Source: an uncultured Gammaproteobacteria bacterium
GTDB taxonomy: Bacteria > Patescibacteriota > Microgenomatia > JALYQM01
Assembly (NCBI GenBank): GCA_964535655.1
Contig: CAZHTP010000001.1
Span: 98,573-162,572, forward strand
Direction: 5' to 3'
DNA length: 64,000 nucleotides
The notes beneath the pieces were generated by a model. It was not told the origin of the DNA. It saw only the letters and a list, made by a program, of their open reading frames with translations, and searched no databases. Every line of letters begins with the position of its first letter. The first letter of the stretch is position 1. Shown in pieces: positions 33,074 through 44,749 of the stretch. The translations under genes were made by a program, and so were the position numbers.

Positions 33074-33322
33074 TTAGATACTTGCAACAATTTCTAATTG
33101 TTTCTGGTGAATACGTGCGAGGCGTTGTTGACGTGCGACTTCTTTTCGTTCGCGCTCTTTTGTTTTTTGAAGTAGCATGTCATCTACTTTTTCCTGGCAT
33201 TCTTTATCGGGGCATGCAGTTTTTGATTTGCGTGTTTTTGTTCCGTTCGCTTCTTCTTCCTCCCATTCTTCTACGGTTATGCGTTGTTGTCCGCAACGTA
33301 TGCACAAGTTAAATATAGTCAT
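33074..33322 (-). CDS. Small zinc-ribbon protein with a Lys/Arg/Glu-rich helical tail.
   Basis: CIRCGQ...CPDKEC provides four Cys as C-x2-C...C-x4-C. The product is 82 aa. Confidence 0.5.
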   Translation of the reverse strand: MTIFNLCIRCGQQRITVEEWEEEEANGTKTRKSKTACPDKECQEKVDDMLLQKTKERERKEVARQQRLARIHQKQLEIVASI

Positions 33323-33609
33323 AGGGGCAGCTCCTTCTGACGCTTCATGCGTCGCAGCTATGGTACTAATAAATTATTACTATTATTTTTTATTAAGCAA
33401 TTGAAGATAGAAAGTTTGTGTGGGAGAAAAAAATTCGTATCTATGTCTATAGGGCAGTTACTCATATCTAAAGGTATGTATACTATATACCAAATATATC
33501 ATTTTTCAAGTGAGCGTAATGATATAAAGTTTTCTTTGCGTAATGTGAGCTTGATAAAATTAATATTTAAAAAACTTATATTAAATAAACGTTTAGTACT
33601 AGAATAACG

Positions 33610-33813
33610 TTGGAAGAGATTTCTTTAGATACCGCCTCTAAAATTTGGAATGTGACTTTGGGTATTCATGGAGAAACTGATAATCCGGTTTATTTGGCTC
33701 AAGGATTAAAAGAGACTTTACAATATAAGTCTTTCAAAATTGATGCTAAGACTGGCGAAGTAATATCTATGGATATAAAATTGATTAATTGTCCAAATTT
33801 GAAGAATGATTAA
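33610..33813 (+). CDS. Hypothetical small protein that may be the antitoxin partner of the downstream PIN remnant.
   Basis: It overlaps the PIN ORF start by 8 nt, a typical toxin-antitoxin (TA) layout. It has a TTG start and no recognisable family. Confidence 0.25.
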   Translation: MEEISLDTASKIWNVTLGIHGETDNPVYLAQGLKETLQYKSFKIDAKTGEVISMDIKLINCPNLKND

Positions 33814-34163
33814 ACTTATTCTTGATACGAATATTCTTCTTGTCTATTTAATAGGATGCTACCGTCCAGAGCTAACATCTCGAAATTCTAGAACTTCAAG
33901 TTATGATAAAGAGGATTTCTACTCTATAGAAAAATATATTGAAGGCAAATGCTTAGTTATAACTCCTTATATTCTAGCTGAAATTTCAAATTTATCGTTA
34001 TATATTAAGGAACCTGGACTTACTGAGTATTAATCAACCTCGACTACTTTCAACCTTTGGATTTACAGACTTATCTATAGTTGCACTGTTAAAAGATAAA
34101 ACGATATCTCTTTTATCTGATGATTCTTCTTTTGTTTGCGCTGGTTTAAGAACTAATTGTTGA
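33806..34163 (+). pseudogene. Frameshifted PIN-domain (VapC-like) toxin gene.
   Basis: Frame A gives MIKLILDTNILLVYL...ITPYILAEISNL, with the PIN Asp and Glu motifs, and stops at 34033. Frame B from 34035 continues as ...FTDLSIVALLKDKTISLLSDDSSF, the conserved PIN D-D segment, to a stop at 34163. Confidence 0.5.
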
Positions 34164-34263
34164 CAATCTTGACTTATCCACCAACATATATATAATAAAT
34201 AGTGTAATTGAAGTTTATCGAAGCGGGTTCCTTGGGGCCTGCTTTTTTTATAGGAGAAAATGT

Positions 34264-35286
34264 ATGGATTTATCACAAGCACGAACAGAGTTTGCTTCGG
34301 CGTTGCGCCAGGTCTGTGCTGAGCGTGGAATTGAGGTTGAAGCAGTACTTGAGACGATCAAAGCCGCTATTTTGGCTGCATATCGTAAGGAAGCTAATCT
34401 TGAAACAACCGACGACTTGAATGTTGAAGTTGACGCTGAAACAGGGGAGCTTGGTATATTTCAGGACGGTAAGAATATTACTCCAGCTGGATTTGGTCGT
34501 ATTGCTTCACAAACCGCTAAACAGGTTATTTTACAGAGAATTCGCGAAGCAGAAAAAGCAGCCCTTGTTAAAGAATATGAGGCTAAGATTGGTACCATTC
34601 AGAATGGTATGATTCAGCGTTTTGATCAGGGCAACTGCATAGTTGACCTTGGTAGGGCTGAAGCAATTATGCCTCGTGAAGAGCAGGTACAACGTGAGAG
34701 ATATCGCATTAACCAAAGATTAACCTTCTATATTGCGGAAATTCGTCAGACAGAGCGGGGAGCACAAATTATTGTATCCCGTTCCCGCCCAGAATTGGTT
34801 GAAGAGATCTTCCGCCGTGAAGTTCCGGAAATCGCTTCTGGTGCTGTAGAAGTTAAAGGCATAGCTCGCGAGGGTGGCTCACGTACTAAGATCGCTGTTT
34901 ATAGCAAACAGACTGGTGTTGACCCTGTAGGGTCATGCGTTGGTCAAAAAGGCGTACGTGTTCAGGCTGTTATTTCGGAAATTGGCGAAGAGCGAATTGA
35001 CGTTATCCAATTCAGCGACGATACTGCTAAATTTATTGCGGCCTCACTTGCACCAGCAAAGGGAGTGCTTGTAGACCTTAACAAAGAAGAGCATTCGGCT
35101 TTGGTAACATGTCCAACCGATCAATTGTCGCTTGCTATTGGTAAAGATGGGCAGAATGTTCGCTTAGCTGTGAAATTAACTGGGTGGAAAATAGATATTA
35201 AAGGACCAAAGGGAAGTGAAACAGAGCAGCCAGCTGATATTACTGCCGAAACAGCAAAACCAGAGGAAGTAGCAACCGAAGCTTAA
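34264..35286 (+). CDS. nusA: Transcription termination/antitermination factor NusA (N-terminal, S1 and two KH domains; no C-terminal acidic repeats).
   Basis: The typical NusA N-terminal domain LETIKAAILAAYRK is followed by S1 and KH motifs (GVDPVGSCVGQKGVRVQAV). Confidence 0.9.
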   Translation: MDLSQARTEFASALRQVCAERGIEVEAVLETIKAAILAAYRKEANLETTDDLNVEVDAETGELGIFQDGKNITPAGFGRIASQTAKQVILQRIREAEKAALVKEYEAKIGTIQNGMIQRFDQGNCIVDLGRAEAIMPREEQVQRERYRINQRLTFYIAEIRQTERGAQIIVSRSRPELVEEIFRREVPEIASGAVEVKGIAREGGSRTKIAVYSKQTGVDPVGSCVGQKGVRVQAVISEIGEERIDVIQFSDDTAKFIAASLAPAKGVLVDLNKEEHSALVTCPTDQLSLAIGKDGQNVRLAVKLTGWKIDIKGPKGSETEQPADITAETAKPEEVATEA

Positions 35287-35304: not shown

Positions 35305-35535
35305 ATGGCGAAGAAACAGAAACCTTCGCGAACGTGTGTTGGATGTCATACCGTGCGTCCCAAGAATGAACTCGTGCGCTTTGTACGAACATCCAAAGGA
35401 ACAGTTGTTGAAGATCCTACCTCACGATTGCGAGGTAGAGGAGCATATGTATGTTCCGAAACAAAAGAGCGTTGCTTGGTTTTAGCAATTAAAAAACGCG
35501 CTTTTGATCGAGCTTTGCCCGGAAAGGTTATTTGA
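35305..35535 (+). CDS. ylxR: YlxR/DUF448 RNA-binding protein.
   Basis: RTCVGCHTVRPKNELVRFV...GRGAYVC matches the YlxR signature. The gene lies between nusA and infB as in many Gram-positive bacteria. Confidence 0.8.
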   Translation: MAKKQKPSRTCVGCHTVRPKNELVRFVRTSKGTVVEDPTSRLRGRGAYVCSETKERCLVLAIKKRAFDRALPGKVI

Positions 35536-35536
35536 A

Positions 35537-37018
35537 ATGTTAGAAGATACTACTACCGTTCGACCACCAATTGTTGCCGTAATGGGACATGTTGACCATG
35601 GGAAAACAACCCTTTTGGATTATATTCGAAAGGCAAATGTTGCAGCTTCCGAGCATGGCGGTATCACTCAGCATTTAGGTGCGTATCAGGTAGTAACCGA
35701 TCAAGGGAAAGCTATAACTTTTTTGGATACTCCAGGACACGCTGCGTTTGAAGGAATTCGTAAGCGCGGAGGGGAAGTTGCGGATATTGTTATCTTGGTG
35801 GTGGCTGCGGATGACGGTGTGATGCCACAAACTAAAGAAGCAATTCGCCATATTAAAAATGCTGGTAGTGTTATGATTGTGGCTTTTAATAAGGTAGATC
35901 TTCCTGATGCCAATATCGATCATGTTAAGCAACAACTTGCTGAAAACGATGTCTTAGTTGAAAGCTATGGGGGAGATGTGGTTTCTGTTGAAATAAGCGC
36001 AAAAAGCGGCCAAGGAGTTGATCAGCTTCTTGAAATGATTTCACTTGTCTCTGATTTACTTGAACTTAAAGCCGACCCAAAGGCACCGGTTGTTGCGTTT
36101 ACTCTTGAATCCCGAATGGACAAAGCAGGACCTTTAGCGAGTTTACTTGTTAAGCGGGGAACTCTCAAAACAGGAATGGATATTGAGATAGATGGCTCAC
36201 TTGGCCGTATTCGTGCCATGAAGAATGATAAAGGGCAGATTGTTAAAGAAGTTTCACCTTCACAGGCTGCTGAAATTACTGGTTTTTCGAAATTACCTGA
36301 AGCAGGAACAATCTTTATTGAAGAAAACAGTAAACTGTCGACTAGCGAAAGCGTTGGCGCCTTAACAGTACGCCACGTAGCTTTGCAGAACGAAAATGTA
36401 TCAGATTTATTCTCGTCACTTAAAACTGACCGGTATCCGGTGATTCTTAAAGCTGACGTGGCAGGTTCACTTGAAGCGCTAGTTGCGAATATTCCACGAT
36501 TAAATGAAGTTCAGGTTATTGACCAGGGAATTGGTGATGTAGGTGAGTCTGATGTAATGAAAGCTCGTGGTACCAGTGCACGTATTTATTCCTTTAATGT
36601 AGGGATGAATGGCACAACGCGTAAACTCGCTCGGGATGAGAAGGTAGAGGTTAAAGAATATAAAATTATCTATAAGCTATTTGAAGACATGGAAAAAGAT
36701 ATTGTCGATTACTTCACCAAAGCTCCAACAGAGACAATTTCTGGCAAGGCGTTGGTACAAAAGGTATTCGCAGCCTCGACTGGTGGAAAAATTGCTGGTG
36801 TTAAAGTTACTGAAGGGGTGATGCAGGTTGGTGCTACCGTACGTGTAATGCGAGGCGAAACAGAAGTAGGTCGCGGTAAGATTGTCACGGTTAAGAAGTT
36901 GAAAGAGGATGTTCCTCGTATTTCTGCCGGGCAAGAGGGTGGATTAACTTTTGATACCCCAATCGAATTCGCTGAATCTGATATAGTAGAATACTACAAG
37001 CCTATTACAAAAGCCTAA
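35537..37018 (+). CDS. infB: Translation initiation factor IF-2, short form lacking N-terminal domains.
   Basis: The G-domain carries AVMGHVDHGKTTLLD, DTPGH and NKVD. The C-terminal beta-barrel domains are present. The ATG at 35537 follows the ylxR stop. Confidence 0.9.
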   Translation: MLEDTTTVRPPIVAVMGHVDHGKTTLLDYIRKANVAASEHGGITQHLGAYQVVTDQGKAITFLDTPGHAAFEGIRKRGGEVADIVILVVAADDGVMPQTKEAIRHIKNAGSVMIVAFNKVDLPDANIDHVKQQLAENDVLVESYGGDVVSVEISAKSGQGVDQLLEMISLVSDLLELKADPKAPVVAFTLESRMDKAGPLASLLVKRGTLKTGMDIEIDGSLGRIRAMKNDKGQIVKEVSPSQAAEITGFSKLPEAGTIFIEENSKLSTSESVGALTVRHVALQNENVSDLFSSLKTDRYPVILKADVAGSLEALVANIPRLNEVQVIDQGIGDVGESDVMKARGTSARIYSFNVGMNGTTRKLARDEKVEVKEYKIIYKLFEDMEKDIVDYFTKAPTETISGKALVQKVFAASTGGKIAGVKVTEGVMQVGATVRVMRGETEVGRGKIVTVKKLKEDVPRISAGQEGGLTFDTPIEFAESDIVEYYKPITKA

Positions 37019-37060
37019 TCTGTGGTATAATCCGCCTACTATTTATTAGAGATTTTACCT

Positions 37061-38440
37061 ATGGACCCGCAAAATAACCTTAAACAATTGCAGGATTTAT
37101 TTAATCAGGCTAAGGATATTCTTGTAATTACTAAAGAGAACCCAACTATTGATGGATTGTGCGCCTGTTTGGCTCTGAAAGCTGCTTTTTCTCAGAAAAT
37201 GGACATGCAAGGCAAGAAGAAGAATGTTACCCTGGCTGTTTCTAAACGTAATGGATCTCAGTATTCGCTATTGCCTGGCTTTGATCAGATTGTTTCTGAG
37301 CTTGGTCTACGTGATTTGGTGATTGGGGTTAATGGGTTTGTTGAAGGATCAATTGAAAATGTTAACTGGTATGTTGATAAAGGGCGATTAAACGTTGTTT
37401 TTAAGTCAAATCCGGCTGTTCCAATGCAATTTGATCTCAAAAACCTTGATCCATTTTATGCGGGCGCTAATTTTGATGTTGTAATTGTCGTTGATGCCAA
37501 TAGTCCTCAGGATTTAGGTAATGCGTATAAGCAGGATCCGGGAATGTATTCCGAGTTACCAGTAATTAATATCTCTAATAGTCAGCCTAACACTCGCTTT
37601 GGTCGAATCAATATTGTGGATTCCAGCGTCCCTTCAGTTTGTGAGTTAGCCTTTCAATTAGCTCAAATCGCTCAGCTAAATGTAATGGGCGATGTTGCTA
37701 CGTTATTTTTAAACGGGATAATGGAAGCCACGGATAATTTGTCTCGCAAAGGACAACAAACTGAAACAATTGTGAACCAATTAGTCGCCTTTGGTGGTCG
37801 CCAATTGGATATTAATGCTATCCGTAATCAGGCTAGTTTGCCGACACTGCCAGTTCATAAGAATCCTCCGCCTGTAACTCCTCCTGCCCCTGCGGTGGGT
37901 CAAATGCCTCCAGGAATGTACGGACAATATCCTCCAGGAATGCCGTATCCACCATATATGCCTCCACAAGGCCAATATGGACAGTATCCAATGCCACCAA
38001 TTGGGTATTATCCTGGTCAGTATCCGATGCCTCCACAAGTATATCCCCAGTATCCTCAGGTTCCACCACAGTATGTTCCACAACCCGATCCAAATATGCC
38101 AGTTCAACAGGAATGGAACAGCCAACAAACTCAGGAACCAATGGAAGAATATGATGCTGAAGTGCCTTCAATTGAGCACGATTTAACACAAAGTCAAACG
38201 TATATTCCAACTGTTGAACCGACATCATACGCCCATGTTGAGCCATCTATTTATATGCCTGGAATTTCCCAGCAGCCTGATGCGTATCAACCTGGCACTG
38301 ATTACGAATGGAATGATCAATCCCAGCAGTATGCTCCGCAACAGCAAGATATCCCGCTTGAAGAGCAAAAAGAGCAGCAAAAGGCACCCGATTTTAATGC
38401 TCCTCCTACAGGATTTGTGCCTGGTGAACGAAAATCGTAA
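37061..38440 (+). CDS. DHH/DHHA1-family NrnA-like protein with degenerate catalytic motifs, fused to a roughly 200-aa Pro/Gln/Tyr-rich low-complexity C-terminal region.
   Basis: An NrnA-like N-terminus is present (ILVITKENPTIDGLCACLALKA; VIVVDANSP where DHH is expected). GGRQ replaces the DHHA1 GGGH motif. The tail reads PPGMYGQYPPGMPYPPYMPPQGQYGQYPMPP... Confidence 0.65.
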   Translation: MDPQNNLKQLQDLFNQAKDILVITKENPTIDGLCACLALKAAFSQKMDMQGKKKNVTLAVSKRNGSQYSLLPGFDQIVSELGLRDLVIGVNGFVEGSIENVNWYVDKGRLNVVFKSNPAVPMQFDLKNLDPFYAGANFDVVIVVDANSPQDLGNAYKQDPGMYSELPVINISNSQPNTRFGRINIVDSSVPSVCELAFQLAQIAQLNVMGDVATLFLNGIMEATDNLSRKGQQTETIVNQLVAFGGRQLDINAIRNQASLPTLPVHKNPPPVTPPAPAVGQMPPGMYGQYPPGMPYPPYMPPQGQYGQYPMPPIGYYPGQYPMPPQVYPQYPQVPPQYVPQPDPNMPVQQEWNSQQTQEPMEEYDAEVPSIEHDLTQSQTYIPTVEPTSYAHVEPSIYMPGISQQPDAYQPGTDYEWNDQSQQYAPQQQDIPLEEQKEQQKAPDFNAPPTGFVPGERKS

Positions 38441-38559
38441 GGGATTCTTTTCAAGATTGACTTAGTCGTGTATAATGCTTTAATCATTATTTTAGATAGG
38501 TCGAAGATGGTGGTTTAAATGTGGAGTTCCACTTTTGTTACTACTGCTTACGAAAACAT

Positions 38560-38829
38560 ATGGCTTTAGCTAACGACGCTAAAAAGACTATTATTTCTAC
38601 AAACCAGATCCATCAAGGTGATACTGGGTCTCCTGAAGTTCAGGTAGCTATTCTCTCAGAGCGAATCACTCGTCTTACAGAGCATTTGAAGCTTCACAAA
38701 GGTGATAATCACTCTCGACGTGGTCTTTTGCAGATGGTAAATAAGCGCCGAAGACTCCTTATGTATCTTATGAAGAAAGATCCAGAGCGATATAAGTCCG
38801 TTGTTGCTAAAGTTGGCTTGTCCAAGTAA
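38560..38829 (+). CDS. rpsO: 30S ribosomal protein S15.
   Basis: [40 protein letters not shown]...KRRRLL is the S15 signature. Confidence 0.9.
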
Positions 38830-39001: not shown

Positions 39002-39148
39002 TGTCTATATTATTGTTTTCCCTTACCTTGGGAATCTTGGCATGATTTTGGATCCTGAATTAAACAGAAAAACTCTTTTTTCTGCTTGATCGAGGAATCT
39101 GAAAACTGTCGTGATGTGTCTTTTAGGTTAAGGAGAAGGAGTTATTTT

Positions 39149-41371
39149 ATGGCGAATATTATTTCGCAGAGTATTAAAATCGGAGATTCCGAGTTACTAC
39201 TTGAACATGGTCGTTTTGCAGCCCAAGCAAGCGGCGCAGTGATTGGTAGAATGGGCGAGACTATGGTTCTTGCAACGGTTGTTGCAAGCAAAAAAGAGTC
39301 TTCTTTAGACTATTTTCCTTTATCTGTTGAGTTTCTTGAGCGGCTTTATGCTGGTGGAAGAATTTCTTCTTCTCGCTTTATTAAACGTGAAGGTCGCCCT
39401 TCAGAAAATTCAATTTTAACTGCACGTCTTATTGATCGTTCAGTTCGTCCACTTTTTCCCGATGGATTTAAGAATGAAGTTCAGATTGTTGTTACCGTTC
39501 TTTCTGTTGACCTTGAACATGATCCAGATGTACTTGGCGTTATCACGGCAAGTGCTGCACTTGCAGTATCTGATATTCCTTGGAATGGTCCACTCGCTGC
39601 AACTCGCTTAGGCTGGAAAGATGAGACGTATTTGGTTAATCCAGTTGCTGAGGTAATGAGGGTTTCTCAGATGGATTTAATTGTTTCTGGAACAAAGAAT
39701 GAAGTTGTAATGGTTGAAGCTGGGATGCAAGAAATGCCAGAAGAGACTGTTGTTAATGGTCTTGAAGAAGCGCAGAAATATAACAAAATTGTTGTTGAAG
39801 GTATTGAAGAACTCGTTAAGAAAGTTGGAAAAGAGAAGTTTCATTTTGAAAAAGCTGAGATCTCTCAAGAAGATAAAGATGCTGTTACTCAGGTGGCACT
39901 CCCCCTTATTAATGAGATGGTTGAGCTTGCTGCTCAAAAGAAACTTAATAAAGAAGACGCTCTTGGTGAATTAAAGAAGCAAGTTGAAGAAAAACTTGCT
40001 GCTGTTGCAACAGAAGAAAGGCCAGTTCCATCAAAAGCTGTTATTGGCGAACTTTCGGAAAAATTGTTTAAGAAATCTATTCGCACTAATACACTTACTA
40101 CTGGAAAGCGTGCTGATGGACGATCATACGATCAGGTCCGTGAATTGGAAATTGAAGTCGGAGTAATTCCTCGTACGCATGGTTCAGCAATGTTTCAGCG
40201 TGGAATGACTCAAACTTTAACAACGGTAACTTTAGGATCTCCGTCACTTGAACAACTAATTGAAGGCCCGGGTGGCGAAGAAACTAAGCGCTACATGCAC
40301 CATTATAATTTCCCTCCTTATTCGGTGGGAGAAGCAAGGCGAATGGGTTCGCCAGGTCGTCGCGAAATAGGACACGGAGCACTTGCTGAGAGAGCCTTAG
40401 TTCCAGTTATTCCTCCACAAGAGCAGTTTCCCTATGCTATTCGTGTTGTTAATGAAATTATGTCTTCTAACGGGTCTTCTTCAATGGCTTCAGTCTGTGG
40501 GTCTTCACTTGCACTAATGGACGCAGGTGTTCCCGTTAAAGCGGCTGTTGCCGGTGTTGCGATGGGACTGATGACCAATGAAGAAGGTACGAAGTATGCC
40601 GTGTTAACCGATATTCAAGGTCTTGAAGATGCAACTGGTGATATGGACTTTAAAGTTGCTGGTACAGCAAAAGGTATTACTGCTTTGCAGATGGATATTA
40701 AACTCTCTGGTTTAAAACACGAATGGCTTAAGGATGCTGTTATGCAGGCCAAAGCAGGAAGAATGTTTATTCTTAATGCCATGCTTGAGAAGATCTCCCA
40801 GGCACGTCCTACACTTTCTAAATATGCACCTCGTGTTGTGATGATGAAGATTGATCCAGAGACCATTGGTTTAGTAATTGGTGGTGGTGGAAAAACTATC
40901 AATCAGATTATTAATCAGTGTGGTGTCGCGATTGATATTGAGGATGACGGCACCGTGCTTATAAGCGGAACTGAAGATGACGGTATTGCTAAGGCGCAGG
41001 CTTGGATTCTTTCTTTAACCAAAGAAATTAAAGTTGGTGAAGTATATGAAGGTGTTGTAAAACGAATTCTTGCTTTTGGCGCATTTGTTGAAATTCTACC
41101 TGGTAAGGAAGGTATGGTTCATATTTCGAAGCTTGCTCCAAATCGTGTTGAACGTGTAGAAGATGTCGTTCAGGTTGGTGATACCGTAACTGTTCGTGTT
41201 GATGAAATCGATTCCGAACGCCGTATTAACCTCACTATGGATGTTGCTGGTACATGGGTAAAAGAAGATCGCGGAGATGATACTAGCCATGGTGGAGGTC
41301 GTGAAGGAAGATTCGAGCGACGAGATCGTAATGGTGGCGGACGCAGTGACCGAGGTGGAAGACGTTGGTAG
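39149..41371 (+). CDS. pnp: Polynucleotide phosphorylase (PNPase) with an Arg/Gly-rich C-terminal tail.
   Basis: The RBS is AAGGAGAAGGAG. Two RNase PH domains, a KH domain and an S1 domain are present (GEVYEGVVKRILAFGAFVEI). The C-terminus reads GGGREGRFERRDRNGGGRSDRGGRRW. Confidence 0.93.
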   Translation: MANIISQSIKIGDSELLLEHGRFAAQASGAVIGRMGETMVLATVVASKKESSLDYFPLSVEFLERLYAGGRISSSRFIKREGRPSENSILTARLIDRSVRPLFPDGFKNEVQIVVTVLSVDLEHDPDVLGVITASAALAVSDIPWNGPLAATRLGWKDETYLVNPVAEVMRVSQMDLIVSGTKNEVVMVEAGMQEMPEETVVNGLEEAQKYNKIVVEGIEELVKKVGKEKFHFEKAEISQEDKDAVTQVALPLINEMVELAAQKKLNKEDALGELKKQVEEKLAAVATEERPVPSKAVIGELSEKLFKKSIRTNTLTTGKRADGRSYDQVRELEIEVGVIPRTHGSAMFQRGMTQTLTTVTLGSPSLEQLIEGPGGEETKRYMHHYNFPPYSVGEARRMGSPGRREIGHGALAERALVPVIPPQEQFPYAIRVVNEIMSSNGSSSMASVCGSSLALMDAGVPVKAAVAGVAMGLMTNEEGTKYAVLTDIQGLEDATGDMDFKVAGTAKGITALQMDIKLSGLKHEWLKDAVMQAKAGRMFILNAMLEKISQARPTLSKYAPRVVMMKIDPETIGLVIGGGGKTINQIINQCGVAIDIEDDGTVLISGTEDDGIAKAQAWILSLTKEIKVGEVYEGVVKRILAFGAFVEILPGKEGMVHISKLAPNRVERVEDVVQVGDTVTVRVDEIDSERRINLTMDVAGTWVKEDRGDDTSHGGGREGRFERRDRNGGGRSDRGGRRW

Positions 41372-41424: not shown

Positions 41425-42501
41425 ATGGCTGACGGACAAAATAGCGATATTTTACAACAACAGACAGATGAACTGCGAGCTCGAGTAGAAGGCGCGAACG
41501 TTCCGGATGGTATTCGAGAAAAATGCCTTGGAATGATTGAGCGTATCGCACGAATGGCGAAGTTTGGTACGTATTCAATTGAATATGAAAATACTTCCCG
41601 ATATATTGATGTTGTGCTGTCAATTCCGTGGGGTGTACTTTCGGAAGATGTTTTGAATCCAACTGTTGCACGAGAAGCGTTAGATAAACATCAATATGGG
41701 CTCGAGCCAGTTAAAGAACGTGTTTTGGAGTACTTAGCTGTTTTACAATTACACCAATATCGTAAACAGCAATTGGGACAAGACGATACGTTTCGCGCTC
41801 CAGTTATCATGTTGGTAGGCCTTGCTGGTACTGGTAAGACATCGTTTGCTTATGCTGTTGCTGACGCAATGAATCGTAAAGTAGCTCGTATTCCGTTTGG
41901 CGGAATGGGGGATGCACTTACGCTTCGTGGACAGTCGCGCGCATTCGCAGATGCTGAGCCAGGTGCGGTTATTAAAGCACTTCTGCAAGCAGGAACACGC
42001 AACCCGGTCATGCTTTTGGACGAAATAGATCGTGTGTCCGATGAAGCACGGGCAAGTGTGATGGGTGTGTTACTTGAGCTTCTTGATCCGCAGCAAAATG
42101 TAGCGTTTCGTGATCACTATTTGGATTATCCGGTTGATTTGTCTGAATGTCTCTTTATCGCGACTGGAAACAACACGACAAATATATCTACGGCGGTATT
42201 GGATCGTTTGGAGGTTATCCAAATGCCATCGTATACAGATGAGGAAAAAATTACTATTGCAGCGAAGTATGTTTTCCCCAAAGCACTACAGGAATCGGGT
42301 TTACCTGAAAATGCAATTATTATTGACCCTTCGGTTTGGCCACAAGTGGTCAGACCACTCGGATTTGATTCCGGCATTCGTACCCTTGAGCGTACGATTC
42401 GCGGAATGTGCCGCAAGGTAGCTCGTATGATTGTTGGTGGAAGTGTTCAGCAAGTGCATGTTACCTCGGAAAATGTAAAGGAATTTTTGCCTACCTGGTA
42501 G
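41425..42501 (+). CDS. Lon-like AAA+ ATPase module lacking both the N-terminal LON substrate-binding domain and the C-terminal S16 protease domain.
   Basis: The pre-AAA region matches Lon (IPWGVLSEDVLNPTVAREALDKHQYGLEPVKERVLEYLAV). Walker A is GLAGTGKTS, Walker B is VMLLDEID, and sensor residues are present. The ORF ends after the helical lid and contains no Ser-Lys dyad region. Confidence 0.75.
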   Translation: MADGQNSDILQQQTDELRARVEGANVPDGIREKCLGMIERIARMAKFGTYSIEYENTSRYIDVVLSIPWGVLSEDVLNPTVAREALDKHQYGLEPVKERVLEYLAVLQLHQYRKQQLGQDDTFRAPVIMLVGLAGTGKTSFAYAVADAMNRKVARIPFGGMGDALTLRGQSRAFADAEPGAVIKALLQAGTRNPVMLLDEIDRVSDEARASVMGVLLELLDPQQNVAFRDHYLDYPVDLSECLFIATGNNTTNISTAVLDRLEVIQMPSYTDEEKITIAAKYVFPKALQESGLPENAIIIDPSVWPQVVRPLGFDSGIRTLERTIRGMCRKVARMIVGGSVQQVHVTSENVKEFLPTW

Positions 42502-42577: not shown

Positions 42578-44749
42578 ATGTCAAATGATACTAATGAAAA
42601 TAACAAAAATGATGGAGTAACTGATTTCTCAGCACTTGTTCCTCAAAAAAATAGATATAATCCTGCGAAGGATTCCGTACAGGTAGCACTTGGTGAATTG
42701 CGAGAGAATATCGCGCAAAAAAATCGCCCTCCCTTTCAGAAAAGAAATGATGGGACACGTCCAGTGCCACGAAATGATGCTCCACGTATCGATGGATCCC
42801 GCACTGATGGTCCACGTCGGCCGGCTCGAGCACCTGCTCCTAATCGTCGACCGCAAGGTGATGGCTATGGAGACCAGATACGCCCTGCTGGTAATCGTCG
42901 CAGTGGTTCGTATGAACCTCGTCGCCGCGATTCACGAGGACCAAGTCAGAACCGCTATCCACAATCACCTCGCCCTATGAGTTCATCAATGGCACGAGGT
43001 GCAACAATTCAAAATACTAACTTATCTCAGCAATGGTATGCCGAAACGGTACCGGTGTTACGGAAAGATCCTAACGTAGTTGAAACTGCAAAACTGCGCA
43101 TTCTTCCTATTGGAGGAATTAATGATGTTCAAAAGAATATGTATGTCTATGAAACCGAAAAAGACATAATAATTATCGACTGCGGGATGGGTTTTGCAGA
43201 CGAAGATATGCCGGGTGTTGATTATTTAATTCCTGATATTTCATATCTTAATGACAAAAAAGATAAGATTCGCGCAATTCTTATTACTCACGGGCATGAT
43301 GACCATATCGGAGCGTTATCGCTAATTTGGCCACAATTAAGGTGTCCTATTTATGCTTCGCATATTACAACTGGTTTTATAAAAACCAAAATGACTGAGC
43401 ATAATTTGCCGGTTGAAGATATTAAAGAGATTGATCCAGACGCATCATATGAATTTGGTGTGTTTAGATTTCAATTCTTTAGATTAAGTCATTCCATTCC
43501 TGATACGTTGGGGTTTGTAATGGATACTCCTGTTGGTAGAATTATTCATAGTGCAGATTTTAAATTTGATTATACTCCGGTAATAGGATTACCAACTGAT
43601 GTTCAGCGTATTGCACGATTTGGCGCAGAAGGTGTTTTGTTATTGCTTTCAGATAGTCTTGGCGCTGAAAAGCCAGGCTATACATTATCTGAAACTGTAG
43701 TTGAAGGACAATTTGATGTTGTTACTGCAAAAACTGTAGGTAAAGTAATTGTCACTACAACTAGCTCAAATATTTCTCGTATTCAGCTTGCTATGAATAT
43801 TGCAGCCAAGTACAATCGCAAAGTTGCTGTGTCTGGGCGTTCAATGGAACAGAATATTGGTGTTGCTCGTAATCTCGGATACTTGAAGTATTCTGATGAT
43901 ATGTTTATTGAGCTTGAGGATATTGGGAAGTATGAGGACCATGAATTGTTCTTAATTGTAGCGGGATCACAGGGGCAAATGGAATCAGCTCTTGGTCGTG
44001 TGTCCCGCGATGAACATAAACAGATTCGCCTTCGCCAGGGTGATTCAGTGGTGTTTTCAACGGATCCAATTCCCGGTAATGAAAACCAGACTAATAAATT
44101 AATTGACGCGCTTATCTCGCATGGTGCTGAAGTGTATTATTCAAATATTTTTAGTAACCTGCATGTTTCAGGTCACGCTGCTCAAGAAGAGCTTAAACTA
44201 ATGATTAGCCTCGTTCGCCCACAATACCTCTTACCTATTGGTGGAACAGCACGAAGTACTAAGAAGTATCGTGATATTGCTATGAATATGGGCTTCAATC
44301 AAGAGTCGGTGTTACTTCCTCAAGAAGGTGAGGTAATTGAATTTAATGTTAAAGACGGAGTTTCTACGCCTTCGATTAACGGTCGCTTTGAAGCAAAGGA
44401 TGTGATGGTTGATGGTCTTGGGGTGGGAGACTTATCTGACATTGTGATTCGCGATCGTCAAGTAATGGCTGAAGAGGGTATGTTGGTAGTTATTGTTCCG
44501 GTTGATCATAAAACGGGGCATACGGAAAGTGGGGTCGAGATTGTTTCGCGTGGATTTGTATACATGAAAGAATCGACTCAGTTGATTGATGACATTACTA
44601 AACTGGTTGAGGATATTCTTGAAGAGCAGCATGGTAAGCCAATGGATTGGACGCTTCTTCGAAAGAAGATTGAAGATCGAGTAAGTAAGTTTATCTTTAA
44701 AGAGATTAAACGTAAACCTATGGTTTTGCCGGTGGTGTTTGAGGTTTAA
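42578..44749 (+). CDS. rnj: Ribonuclease J (metallo-beta-lactamase/beta-CASP) with a roughly 170-aa Arg/Pro/Gly-rich N-terminal extension.
   Basis: ILITHGHDDHIGAL (HxHxDH) and beta-CASP motifs are present, together with the RNase J C-terminal domain. The N-terminus reads RNDGTRPVPRNDAPRIDGSRTDGPRRPARAPAPNRRPQGDGYG... Confidence 0.88.
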   Translation: MSNDTNENNKNDGVTDFSALVPQKNRYNPAKDSVQVALGELRENIAQKNRPPFQKRNDGTRPVPRNDAPRIDGSRTDGPRRPARAPAPNRRPQGDGYGDQIRPAGNRRSGSYEPRRRDSRGPSQNRYPQSPRPMSSSMARGATIQNTNLSQQWYAETVPVLRKDPNVVETAKLRILPIGGINDVQKNMYVYETEKDIIIIDCGMGFADEDMPGVDYLIPDISYLNDKKDKIRAILITHGHDDHIGALSLIWPQLRCPIYASHITTGFIKTKMTEHNLPVEDIKEIDPDASYEFGVFRFQFFRLSHSIPDTLGFVMDTPVGRIIHSADFKFDYTPVIGLPTDVQRIARFGAEGVLLLLSDSLGAEKPGYTLSETVVEGQFDVVTAKTVGKVIVTTTSSNISRIQLAMNIAAKYNRKVAVSGRSMEQNIGVARNLGYLKYSDDMFIELEDIGKYEDHELFLIVAGSQGQMESALGRVSRDEHKQIRLRQGDSVVFSTDPIPGNENQTNKLIDALISHGAEVYYSNIFSNLHVSGHAAQEELKLMISLVRPQYLLPIGGTARSTKKYRDIAMNMGFNQESVLLPQEGEVIEFNVKDGVSTPSINGRFEAKDVMVDGLGVGDLSDIVIRDRQVMAEEGMLVVIVPVDHKTGHTESGVEIVSRGFVYMKESTQLIDDITKLVEDILEEQHGKPMDWTLLRKKIEDRVSKFIFKEIKRKPMVLPVVFEV

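Follow-up and report, generated by a model that had tools for sequence, protein, structure and literature searches.

A DHHA1-less, degenerate NrnA'-like protein with a predicted disordered tail between infB and rpsO in Patescibacteria

The NrnA' clade consists of nanoRNases linked to infB, rbfA and nusA and is defined by this neighbourhood, and in NrnA-type enzymes the C-terminal domain is defined by GGGH, a motif located in DHHA1 (PMC4081065). In Actinobacteria, NrnA' is found alongside RbfA within the same operon (PMC4081065); rbfA, era and der have been reported as lost in Microgenomatia, Dojkabacteria and WWE3 (PMC12641178). Members of the clade include MSMEG_2630 of M. smegmatis (PDB 4LS9) and Rv2837c/CnpB of M. 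tuberculosis (PDB 5JJU/5CET). The phosphodiesterase TmPDE of Thermotoga maritima (TM1595, PDB 5O1U/5O25/5O4Z), which acts on pApA, is a stand-alone DHH/DHHA1 protein. Based on solved structures, DHHA1 is the main substrate-binding domain of NrnA-type enzymes. The DHH superfamily also includes non-catalytic scaffolds, namely Cdc45 and the archaeal RecJ-like/GAN proteins. Outside this superfamily, SSB (linker and tip) and FtsZ (C-terminal linker and peptide) combine a folded domain with a disordered linker and a conserved docking peptide, and degradosome condensates are represented by bacterial RNP bodies and by the C-terminal scaffold of RNase E.

In the window, i.e., the whole stretch of 64 kb analysed here, a protein of 459 aa, hereafter X, is encoded within a gene cluster of the order nusA-ylxR-infB-X-rpsO-pnp-AAA(Lon-lid)-rnj, with the following features:

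34264-35286, + strand: nusA (Pfam)
35305-35535, + strand: ylxR-like ORF (ORFs, Pfam)
35504 (TTG as listed; ATG at 35537 more likely) to 37018, + strand: infB (Pfam, ORFs)
37004..37031, + strand: promoter-like site with extended -10, TGGTATAAT (consensus scan, 10/12 with TG; consensus match only)
37061..38440, + strand: X, complete CDS, DHHA1-less and degenerate NrnA'-like (ATG-to-stop ORF, 459 aa plus stop; ORF list)
38521/38560-38829, + strand: rpsO (Pfam)
39086-41371, + strand: pnp, with an RGG C-tail (Pfam, termini)
41425-42501, + strand: AAA+/Lon-lid ATPase (Pfam)
42578-44749, + strand: RNase J (rnj), with an Arg-rich N-terminal disordered region (Pfam, termini)

X thus has the nusA/infB neighbourhood in common with NrnA'. 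An earlier note on this DNA, made from the letters alone, had placed the gene in the nusA-infB cluster and had stated that rbfA is absent from this position. Both statements hold, as nusA, the ylxR-like ORF and infB lie upstream, rpsO and pnp lie downstream, and the gap between infB and X comprises only 42 nt, with no rbfA in between. The promoter-like site ends 30 nt 5' of the X start codon, and no terminator-like sites were detected between infB, X and rpsO. Scans with Rfam and for tRNAs gave no match in the window, and a six-frame hmmsearch of it detected neither a second DHH gene nor a canonical nrnA.

The order infB-X-rpsO-pnp-AAA-rnj was found in the window as well as in the related loci L001, L003, L004, L009, L010 and L011. 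The P0007 locus keeps it with one extra ORF of 191 aa between infB and X, loci L006 and L013 show the cluster order with short insertions, and in L012 infB-X-rpsO is followed by a gene cut by the contig end. Upstream, nusA-ylxR-infB-X recurs in about ten related loci. Overall, infB lies immediately upstream of X in all informative contexts but one, and rpsO adjoins X downstream in 10 of 11.

Homologs of X were retrieved from NCBI, JGI, ENA and Logan, representing at least 18 independent assemblies. They carry equivalent tails and comprise 397-470 aa (397-463 aa in the 15 full-length homologs), their heads are 46-97% identical, and the N-terminus MDPQNN is conserved. In comparison with the ortholog in L001, dN was far below dS in both parts of the protein, with dN/dS of about 0.07 for the head and about 0.10 for the tail, values to be read qualitatively only, since dS was saturated (>1.5, and undefined in two pairs). 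X is a real gene under constraint. A scan against NCBIfam returned no family. The following features were assigned to the N-terminal part of X:

37061..37849, + strand: DHH-fold head domain, residues 1-263 (Pfam PF01368, AF2)
37133..37156, + strand: motif I remnant KENPTIDG, residues 25-32 (aligned with 'THAKADCDG' of canonical Patescibacteria NrnA)
37280..37477, + strand: beta-rich insertion of about 65 aa, residues 74-139, between strand 2 and motif II (AF2)
37478..37504, + strand: motif II VVIVVDANS, residues 140-148, Asp145 kept (phmmer alignment to TmPDE 'VVVDASSP')
37562..37582, + strand: motif III remnant VINISNS, residues 168-174 (alignments to TmPDE and canonical NrnA)
37715..37741, + strand: motif IV remnant GIMEATDNL, residues 219-227 (alignment; canonical GIxTDTGxF)
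37793..37804, + strand: GGRQ, residues 245-248, turn near the DHH-domain end (aligned with canonical 'LGGRQ/LGADQ' and with 'GGRR/GAKR' of the family)

The earlier note had described the N-terminus as following the DHH-DHHA1 layout of NrnA, of which only the first half could be retained. The head matched PF01368 with an E value of 1.5e-7 (32.2 bits at a cut-off of 28.1), and its AF2 model (pLDDT 87) shows a DHH-domain fold with a five-stranded parallel sheet and flanking helices; a fold search with X returned only DHH-family proteins among the top matches. For DHHA1 (PF02272), there was no match in X even at E<=10, while the same test recovered the domain in the canonical relative P0150 with an E value of 4.6e-11. 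In addition, X contains no GGGH motif, and all of its sequence past residue 263 or so has a pLDDT below 50, so that residues 264-459 are predicted to be disordered.

Between strand 2 and motif II, the lineage-specific beta insertion (strands E85-90, E98-106, E109-116 and E129-134 in the AF2 model) forms the most conserved block among the close relatives of X, hereafter the window clade, and leaves 60-70 residues of X unaligned against every solved NrnA-type structure. Canonical NrnA proteins of Patescibacteria (P0150 and P0163) also harbor it and align with about 93% of the X head at 24-31% identity, but they retain the motifs DCDG/DGDA, NIDHH, DTGSF and GGGH, do not carry the WLxPKIF terminal peptide described below, and P0150, which has both DHH and DHHA1, is located outside the infB-rpsO slot. 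Many of these canonical relatives are annotated as 'bifunctional oligoribonuclease/PAP phosphatase NrnA [Patescibacteria group bacterium]'. Residues 1-72 were also considered as an extra N-terminal element, as the phmmer alignment with TmPDE begins at query residue 73, but this was rejected because strand 1 with motif I falls at residues 19-32 and the insertion at 74-139, both in the AF2 model and in the alignment of the family.

With respect to the active site, the alignments confirmed a catalytically degenerate NrnA relative, as the earlier note had proposed, but they reassigned most of the motifs on which that proposal was built. Only two of the eight canonical metal or catalytic positions of the DHH domain survive (D31 and D145), six being replaced. 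In motif I, the canonical H-x3-D-x-D is changed to K25...T29-I-D31. The position given for the altered DxD motif (ENPTIDG) was therefore correct, though its second Asp, D31, is in fact kept as the sole survivor and is near-invariant across the family. VVDANS, which had been taken for the former DHH motif, aligns instead with motif II ('VVDASSP' of TmPDE) and keeps its Asp as D145, a position occupied by Gly in several members of the window clade and in many of the wider family. The true DHH position is found in motif III, where the canonical I-D-H-H reads I-S172-N173-S174 in X; in the wider family, most members still have the Asp of this motif (as NID-x-x, with 'DRH' in Gottesmanbacteria). In motif IV, the catalytic Asp is replaced by Ala223, and Ala occupies this position in 98 of 118 sampled relatives. 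Finally, GGRQ cannot stand for a former GGGH, since it ends the DHH domain and the true GGGH of canonical relatives follows about 100 residues further on. Aligning X to the DHH and DHHA1 profiles and scoring the metal-binding residues, as had been suggested, thus matched the former domain and not the latter, with neither an intact DHH nor a GGGH motif. TmPDE, by comparison, keeps intact DxD, D, DHH and D motifs as well as DHHA1 and has neither insertion nor tail, and in comparison with NrnA', X is without DHHA1/GGGH, has six of eight DHH-domain residues replaced, adds the beta insertion of about 65 aa and a disordered tail of about 195 aa with conserved terminal peptides, and lacks rbfA in its cluster. 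X is almost certainly a non-enzymatic relic of NrnA that, judging from these alignments, has lost half of its fold and its catalytic residues. Given these losses, X would be predicted to show no Mn2+-dependent hydrolysis of nanoRNA, pAp or pApA.

Beyond its close homologs, X belongs to a large, Microgenomatia-centred family in Patescibacteria, within which its clade is the most degenerate; the earlier note had overlooked this family together with its conserved C-terminal peptide as a hallmark and the restriction of the long Tyr-rich tail to one clade. Family members share a DHH head without DHHA1 but with the beta insert of about 65 aa, followed by a P/Q-rich linker that differs in length, and they end in the conserved peptide (P)DWLxPKI(F/Y)KG. 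A search with a family profile resulted in 5499 matches, 1510 of them at E<=1e-10, spanning head positions of about 5-235 in proteins of 222-500 aa, and at least 1317 clusters were counted at E<=1e-15 with a profile built from degenerate members only. With few exceptions, the sampled genes of the family are located between infB and rpsO, and named relatives belong to Gottesmanbacteria, Microgenomates and Patescibacteria. D31, N177, S192, E195, G219 and T224 are conserved family-wide and group together on the face of the former active site. The Gottesmanbacteria subfamily still has five ligand positions (H, D, D, D, H), so that residual metal or ligand binding may persist in the family. Relatives are labelled in the databases as 'nanoRNase/pAp phosphatase', 'c-di-AMP phosphodiesterase-like' or 'DHH family phosphoesterase', and in the light of the features above the family is evidently mis-annotated. 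In the literature on DHH, NrnA or oligoribonuclease proteins of CPR/Patescibacteria, we found no description of it.

The C-terminal part of X was divided into the following features:

37850..38095, + strand: uncharged segment rich in Pro, Tyr, Gln, Gly and Met, residues 264-345, predicted disordered (composition, pLDDT <50)
38096..38437, + strand: acidic Gln-rich segment, residues 346-459, predicted disordered (20 D+E vs 4 K+R; pLDDT)
38162..38248, + strand: conserved tail island VPSIEHDLTQSQTYIPTVEPTSYAHVEPS, residues 368-396, candidate short linear motif (homolog alignment)
38384..38437, + strand: C-terminal peptide APDFNAPPTGFVPGERKS, residues 442-459, probable diverged form of the family hallmark (clade intermediates)

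As the earlier note had described, about 200 C-terminal residues (here about 197) are of low complexity, with 22.8% P, 15.2% Q, 9.6% Y and 2.5% N. The 82 residues of the first segment include 30 P, 12 Y, 11 Q, 8 G and 6 M, but only one acidic and one basic residue, and among homologs this composition is kept while the sequence is not. The composition of the tail, which alone was computed, argues against the label 'prion-like': with 36% Pro and only 2-3% Asn, its core resembles an extended, disordered linker bearing Tyr/Met stickers more than an amyloid-type prion domain rich in Q/N. An origin of the tail from DNA tandem repeats was rejected, as the sole repeat (11 nt, 1.9 copies) is attributable to chance and does not fall within the P-rich part. 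Across the ten closest homologs, the tail island follows the pattern VPSIxHDxxQxxxYIPT...YxHVEPS. It is not predicted to fold (pLDDT), and a search of it against the PDB gave no significant match (best E=0.064, to an unrelated chain).

The hallmark peptide of the family, (P)DW(L/F)xPK(I/V)(F/Y)(K/R)G, was detected in 119 of 162 members in one sample and in 115 of 118 in another, with a consensus C-terminal end of ...PDWLKPKIYKGSTKV. The peptide of the window, APDFNAPPTGFVPGE, is at best a weak, diverged version and fails the regular expression used, but it is tied to the consensus by intermediates in P0017 (APDWNAPPKIFGG), P0006 (APDFKAPPKIFDG) and P0009 (APDWKNAPKFFEG); in the deepest branch of the window clade (P0010-P0015), the hallmark is nearly lost. 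The C-terminal peptides had no meaningful match in the PDB, and the WLxPKIF motif was present on no protein of the window or related loci other than X. A basic-hydrophobic, MinD-like membrane-targeting helix was not adopted for this peptide, because its central Pro is invariant and the version of the window clade is Pro-rich and non-basic; in the wider family, it may nevertheless be such a helix. Tails of the window clade have about 192 aa, 9.3% Tyr and a net charge of -12, compared to about 87 aa, 1.5% Tyr and a charge of 0 in other family members (on average 17% P and 12% Q in family tails). The long Tyr-rich tail is an elaboration specific to the window clade.

On balance, and only just, we consider it probable that X is a non-catalytic descendant of an infB-linked NrnA' that serves as an adaptor or tether in the RNA and translation machinery. 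In this role, X would act as a tether and not as an enzyme, and its folded head would hold one partner, or dimerise, via the conserved vestigial active-site face, dimerisation being suggested by analogy only. The flexible linker would then allow the C-terminal peptide or peptides of X to bind another partner, one belonging to the machinery for transcription, translation or RNA decay whose genes lie nearby. More speculatively, in the window clade the linker would have expanded into a Tyr-rich, net-acidic region, which could engage the Arg-rich disordered regions at the N-terminus of RNase J and at the C-terminus of PNPase in multivalent Tyr-Arg and charge contacts, resulting in a degradosome-like assembly. 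A far-reaching version of this proposal, to which we give only a slim chance, would see in X a hub of Microgenomatia type, i.e., a dead, DHHA1-less NrnA' that assembles the machinery for RNA decay or ribosome maturation by means of its disordered linker and conserved C-terminal peptide, with the Tyr-rich acidic tail of the window clade forming a degradosome-like condensate with the Arg-rich regions of RNase J and PNPase in a scaffold role like that of the RNase E C-terminal domain and possibly offsetting lost assembly factors such as RbfA.

Other explanations were weighed against the adaptor reading. An artefactual tail, or even an artefactual ORF as a whole, owing to an assembly or frameshift error or to a decaying pseudogene, could be suspected from the low complexity of the tail and from two long antisense ORFs overlapping X. 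The latter are, though, an expected by-product of a CCN/CAR-rich coding sequence, no DNA tandem repeat is present in the tail, and tail dN is well under dS (with dS saturated). Moreover, full-length, tailed homologs from the at least 18 independent assemblies of four sources share the islands and the C-terminal peptide, and an assembly artefact, which the earlier note had named as a possible refutation, is effectively refuted along with the other variants. Considerably less remote, but still very unlikely, is the view that X remains an enzyme which hydrolyses a small phosphoester with a reduced metal site or other residues, the role of DHHA1 being provided in trans or by a folded-back C-terminal peptide. 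The top conserved positions of the family do sit on the former active-site face, the motif III Asp persists in most members with H/D/D/D/H in the Gottesmanbacteria subfamily, and relatives are named 'nanoRNase/pAp phosphatase' or 'DHH family phosphoesterase'. These pipeline names rest solely on the PF01368 match, however, and X itself has only D31 and D145 of the eight positions, with both His of DHH and the Asp residues of motifs III and IV lost. D145 is not even conserved in the window clade, where several members have Gly, and DHHA1 with GGGH is missing in all 118+162 members checked, bar three canonical outliers.

The earlier note had itself favoured a pseudo-enzyme that binds nanoRNA or pAp via its retained fold and aggregates or condenses via a prion-like tail. 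Catalytic degeneration was confirmed, the tail is predicted to be disordered and rich in Q and Y, and the neighbouring RNA-decay enzymes bear Arg-rich disordered regions, yet we regard this combination as distinctly unlikely. A binding fold for nanoRNA or pAp is hardly retained when DHHA1, the carrier of GGGH (PMC4081065), is wholly absent from X. The Pro-rich, Asn-poor tail core is unlike Q/N prion domains, tails beyond the window clade are short and Tyr-poor, and the element conserved family-wide is a terminal peptide of docking type rather than an aggregation-prone sequence. Similarly, a functional replacement of RbfA, with X as a 30S maturation or binding factor in the rbfA slot of lineages without rbfA, appears unlikely, despite several points in its favour. 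X sits where the widespread order nusA-infB-rbfA-truB-rpsO-pnp has rbfA(-truB) and mostly lies beside rpsO, the gene for S15 (10 of 11 contexts). Named family members belong to Gottesmanbacteria and Microgenomates, and Microgenomatia, Dojkabacteria and WWE3 were reported to be without rbfA, era and der (PMC12641178). A phmmer search of the 64 kb revealed no RbfA-like ORF, a weak test, as the E. coli RbfA query was approximate. On the other hand, X shows no similarity to the KH fold of RbfA; its head is unambiguously DHH, with Pfam giving only DHH and the fold search only DHH-family proteins at the top, and X could share a role with RbfA only as an analogue, not as a homologue. Since NrnA' and RbfA coexist in one operon of Actinobacteria (PMC4081065), the position of X is accounted for by its derivation from NrnA' and a later loss of rbfA.

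If the adaptor reading is correct, X would be a bacterial counterpart of Cdc45, i.e., a former DHH phosphoesterase that came to serve as a scaffold, here within the NrnA branch and throughout a whole radiation of ultra-small bacteria. This likeness is an analogy of mechanism and not a family membership, as Cdc45 and GAN derive from RecJ rather than NrnA, keep a DHHA1-like domain and are eukaryotic or archaeal replication factors. More than 1000 database entries bear enzyme labels despite missing DHHA1 and key catalytic residues, and reconstructions of Patescibacteria metabolism that credit turnover of nanoRNA, pAp or c-di-AMP from such labels would then be wrong. Based on its fixed place from infB to rpsO-pnp-rnj in lineages reported to be without rbfA, era and der, X would be a specific candidate for a so far unrecognised part of the machinery for translation or RNA decay in reduced genomes, and its conserved C-terminal peptide offers a ready bait for partner finding. 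In architecture, the family resembles SSB and FtsZ, with a P/Q/G-rich linker that varies in length and sequence but keeps its composition, and with a short conserved docking peptide at the end, though there is no sequence relationship, the peptide reading (P)DWLxPKI(F/Y)KG compared to DDDIPF in SSB and D-I-P-x-F-L-R in FtsZ.

For the window clade, the RNase E scaffold is a possible analogy, as a disordered scaffold would be encoded together with PNPase and an RNase and the Tyr/acidic and Arg-rich regions would be complementary; in the case of X, however, the scaffold would be a separate pseudo-enzyme and not the tail of an endonuclease. The Arg-rich N-terminal disordered region of RNase J comprises 130-150 aa in the window, L001, L003 and L009 and is missing in L004, L010 and L011, while the RNase J of L013, judged by its length as called only (549 aa), is too short to carry it. 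The Tyr-rich acidic tail of X co-occurs with this region (4 vs 4 loci, phylogenetically non-independent), and the C-terminus of PNPase forms a tail of the RGG type.

The 459-aa ORF X (ATG at 37061, stop at 38440, + strand) encodes a DHH-superfamily pseudo-enzyme with a new domain architecture. Its family is found widely across Patescibacteria and is tied to a core gene cluster; both the identity and the degeneracy of X are solid. Its coordinates in the ORF listing were identical to those of the earlier note. The cluster is organized as follows, with nusA, infB and all genes from rpsO to ftsK assigned via Pfam:

34264-35286, nusA
35305-35535 (+), ylxR-like ORF of 76 aa (CxxC ... GRGAYVC), between nusA and infB
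ending at 37018, a short infB, directly 5' of X
37061-38440 (+), X
38521-38829 (+), rpsO
39086-41371 (+), pnp; PNPase with a C-terminal RGG-type tail, EDRGDDTSHGGGREGRFERRDRNGGGRSDRGGRRW (41267-41371; Arg and Gly account for 10 each of its 35 residues)
41425-42501 (+), 358-aa AAA+ ATPase with a Lon lid, without the Lon protease domain
42578-44749 (+), RNase J with an N-terminal Arg/Pro/Gly-rich disordered extension of about 140 aa (42578-43000)
following RNase J, ftsK

A YlxR domain (PF04296) was found at the position of the ylxR-like ORF in one relative's locus. Since the gap between infB and X is only 42 nt, there is no room for rbfA, so that its absence from this position, as noted before, was upheld; a phmmer search with an approximate E. 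coli RbfA query, a weak test, also revealed no RbfA-like ORF in the 64-kb window. This fits the reported loss of rbfA, along with era and der, in Dojkabacteria, WWE3 and Microgenomatia (PMC12641178) and the patchy occurrence of RbfA in CPR genomes (969 of 2177; PMC6744442). As to gene starts, infB is listed from TTG 35504, overlapping the ylxR-like ORF, and ATG 35537 (MLEDTTT...) is more likely; the resulting IF2 of about 493 aa is devoid of the long N-terminal region that IF2 carries in most bacteria, and NusA (340 aa) likewise has no C-terminal acidic repeats. For rpsO, the listed GTG start leads to 102 aa, while ATG 38560 (MALANDAKK...) fits the 89-aa S15 of relatives.

Pfam analysis of X revealed a DHH domain alone (E=1.5e-7, above the gathering score) and no DHHA1 match even at E<=10, while DHHA1 of P0150, a canonical Patescibacteria NrnA, scored E=4.6e-11 in the same test; an NCBIfam scan of X gave nothing. 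AlphaFold2 with the full-length family alignment predicted residues 1-263 as folded and 264-459 with pLDDT <50, and a second head model based on 36 aligned sequences reached a pLDDT of 87.2. Foldseek ranked mycobacterial NrnA' (4LS9), T. maritima PDE (5O4Z/5O1U) and Rv2837c (5JJU) at the top (E~1e-13). Thus, of the DHH-DHHA1 layout proposed in the earlier note, the DHH half was confirmed and DHHA1 is absent. A stretch of 60-70 residues failed to superpose throughout; it is a beta-rich insertion (residues 74-139) separating strand 2 from motif II and is also carried by the canonical P0150 and P0163. Alignment of X to TmPDE and to these two proteins led to the following assignment of catalytic motifs:

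motif I: canonical T-H-A-K-A-D-C-D-G; in X T-K25-E-N-P-T29-I-D31-G, one Asp of three ligands kept
motif II: canonical VVMDAGS; in X VVD145ANS, Asp kept
motif III: canonical N-I-D-H-H; in X N-I-S172-N173-S174, all three lost
motif IV: canonical GIITDTGSF; in X GIMEA223TDNL, Asp lost

Catalytic degeneration was therefore confirmed, with two of eight canonical positions kept, and two of the previous motif assignments had to be corrected. VVDANS, formerly taken for the DHH counterpart, is motif II, the DHH position being S172-N173-S174. GGRQ (245-248), formerly equated with GGGH, corresponds in the alignment to 'LGGRQ/LGADQ', located where the canonical DHH domain ends, and the true GGGH lies in DHHA1, about 100 residues further on. 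Judged from these residues, two-metal NrnA chemistry is almost certainly impossible for the X head.

The C-terminal 197 residues proved, as described before, to be of low complexity (P 22.8%, Q 15.2%, Y 9.6%), and comprise:

residues 264-345, uncharged part rich in P/Y/Q/G/M
residues 346-459, acidic, Q-rich part
residues 368-396, island VPSIxHDxxQxxxYIPT...YxHVEPS, conserved in the ten closest homologs
residues 442-459, conserved C-terminal island APDF/WxxPPxxF

Equivalent P/Q/Y-rich tails were present in all 15 full-length homologs (397-463 aa; further ones appeared in later searches), with 46-97% identity in the heads and 22-94% in the tails. These homologs came from NCBI, JGI, ENA and Logan assemblies, which excludes an assembly artefact, the outcome named in the earlier note as speaking against its reading. 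In comparison with the ortholog of the related locus L001, dN was far below dS (ratios of 0.07 for the head and 0.10 for the tail, to be read qualitatively since dS is saturated), and no DNA tandem repeat was found in the tail. Together with the homolog tails and the islands, this also excludes a pseudogene. Two antisense ORFs in the tail-coding region, 37781-38128 (-, 115 aa) and 37833-38246 (-, 137 aa), were rejected as genes, being an expected by-product of a CCN/CAR-rich low-complexity coding sequence.

Searching the head profile against 1.84 billion representatives resulted in 5499 matches, including 1510 at E<=1e-10. Three representatives of the window clade were followed by a tier at E~1e-37 of 222-500-aa proteins that share the head including the insertion, with 'NID-x-x' or similar replacing DHH, a P/Q-rich linker whose length varies greatly, and a C-terminal peptide of striking conservation, (P)DW(L/F)xPK(I/V)(F/Y)(K/R)G, frequently ending in S/T-x-V or N-L-G. 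This motif was detected in 119 of 162 members using a strict pattern, most misses being visible variants, and in 115 of 118 members of a second sample. The corresponding peptide of X, APDFNAPPTGFVPGE, is a diverged form of this hallmark, bridged by the clade members P0017 (APDWNAPPKIFGG) and P0006 (APDFKAPPKIFDG). When the profile was restricted to degenerate members, it matched at least 1317 clusters at E<=1e-15, the named ones being Candidatus Gottesmanbacteria, Microgenomates group or Patescibacteria group, and GGGH was found in none of 118 family members examined. Degeneration is graded: in the Gottesmanbacteria subfamily, H..T.D, the motif II Asp and 'D-R-H' are preserved, with Ala at motif IV, and degeneration has gone furthest in the window clade. 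Near-invariant throughout the family are D31, N177, S192, E195, G219 and T224, all located on the old active-site face. No description of this DHHA1-less family was found in the literature searched. In databases, its members are either 'hypothetical' or mislabelled as an active nanoRNase or phosphodiesterase, and the consequence for annotation is immediate; labels include 'DHH family phosphoesterase', 'nanoRNase/pAp phosphatase' and 'c-di-AMP phosphodiesterase-like'. P0277, P0290, P0292, P0298, P0316, P0351, P0376 and other DHHA1-less family members bear the names 'nanoRNase/pAp phosphatase (c-di-AMP/oligoRNAs hydrolase)', 'c-di-AMP phosphodiesterase-like protein', 'Exopolyphosphatase-related protein' or 'DHH family phosphoesterase'. 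Since the domain and the residues are missing, such names are probably cases of systematic over-annotation.

In every informative context (the window, the P0007 locus, L001, L003, L004, L006, L009, L010, L011, L012 and L013), X or its relative is located after infB and before rpsO-pnp, and the AAA+ ATPase and RNase J come next in most; sampled family members were about 30% identical to X in the head. Between infB and X, two genes intervene only in L011 and one unannotated 191-aa ORF in the P0007 locus; between X and rpsO, two genes are found only in L006, from a Gottesmanbacteria genome. Unlike X, canonical P0150 is encoded beside a Mur ligase. The NrnA' clade is defined by an infB/rbfA/nusA neighbourhood, and in M. 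smegmatis its gene is co-transcribed with infB and rbfA (Srivastav et al., PMC4081065). The structure from this clade, 4LS9, ranked among the top matches to the X head. The simplest history is an operon-resident NrnA' ancestor that lost DHHA1 and its catalytic residues. L001 (CAYOFQ010000001.1) and L003 (CAZGHS010000011.1) have Patescibacteria-type clusters with X at 83% and 65% identity, respectively, and their label 'uncultured Gammaproteobacteria bacterium' looks wrong. L001 lies on a contig of 1.57 Mb, perhaps a nearly complete genome from the lineage of the window.

Based on architecture and position, it is plausible that X is an adaptor or tether: a selected protein with a DHH head, no DHHA1, a disordered linker conserved in composition rather than in sequence or length, and, at its C-terminal end or close to it, one or two conserved short peptides, fixed among NusA (transcription elongation), IF2 (initiation), S15, and PNPase and RNase J (RNA decay). 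The head would supply one binding surface on the old active-site face, and the linker would let the terminal peptide capture a partner, an architecture that parallels those of SSB and FtsZ. As a dead DHH protein, X would also resemble Cdc45, a DHH protein retained as a scaffold (PMC4873980).

Residual catalysis is possible in less degenerate subfamilies and unlikely for X, given its two remaining ligands and the missing DHHA1. Substitution for RbfA is attractive in view of the position of X and the reported rbfA loss; however, the X head has no fold similarity to RbfA, and Actinobacteria have both NrnA' and RbfA, so the position by itself is accounted for by descent. Rather improbable is the nanoRNA- or pAp-binding, prion-like aggregator of the earlier note, as X lacks the GGGH-bearing DHHA1, the main substrate-binding module, its tail has too much Pro and too little Asn for a Q/N prion domain, and the element conserved family-wide is a docking-type peptide.

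Besides the adaptor reading, the window clade revealed features of its own. Its tails are about 192 aa long with 9.3% Tyr and a net charge of -12, compared to tails of about 87 aa with 1.5% Tyr and no net charge elsewhere. An Arg-rich disordered N-terminal extension of RNase J (130-150 aa) was found in the window (23 Arg among the first 140 residues), L001, L003 and L009, all of this clade; it was absent from the N-termini read in L004, L010 and L011, and in L013, where RNase J runs off the locus, the called length of 549 aa leaves no space for it. Basic or RGG tails on PNPase were present in all related loci examined. As Tyr/acidic and Arg-rich disordered regions are a classic pairing for multivalent assembly, we hypothesize a degradosome-like complex or condensate in this clade, suggested by few, non-independent loci. 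Nearly all related loci also encode the AAA+ ATPase between pnp and rnj; its C-terminal ...N(V/I)KEFLPTW is conserved, and the protein is a candidate for a partner or regulator within the cluster.

Upstream of nusA, a highly charged, Cys-containing 82-aa ORF (33074-33322, -; CIRCG...CPDKEC) lies antisense between 2-oxoacid:ferredoxin oxidoreductase genes and nusA, and three related loci harbor an 83-84-aa gene without Pfam matches in the same place and orientation. The region 33500-34000 is unusually AT-rich (GC 0.29) with few ORFs. Downstream of it, the stretch 34169-34245 (+) contains a promoter-like site (TTGACT-16-TATAAT, 11/12, the best of the region) and, 3' of this site and directly before the nusA ATG at 34264, an 11-bp GC-containing hairpin with a T-run (34220-34245). 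This arrangement might act as a leader attenuator through which nusA regulates its own expression.
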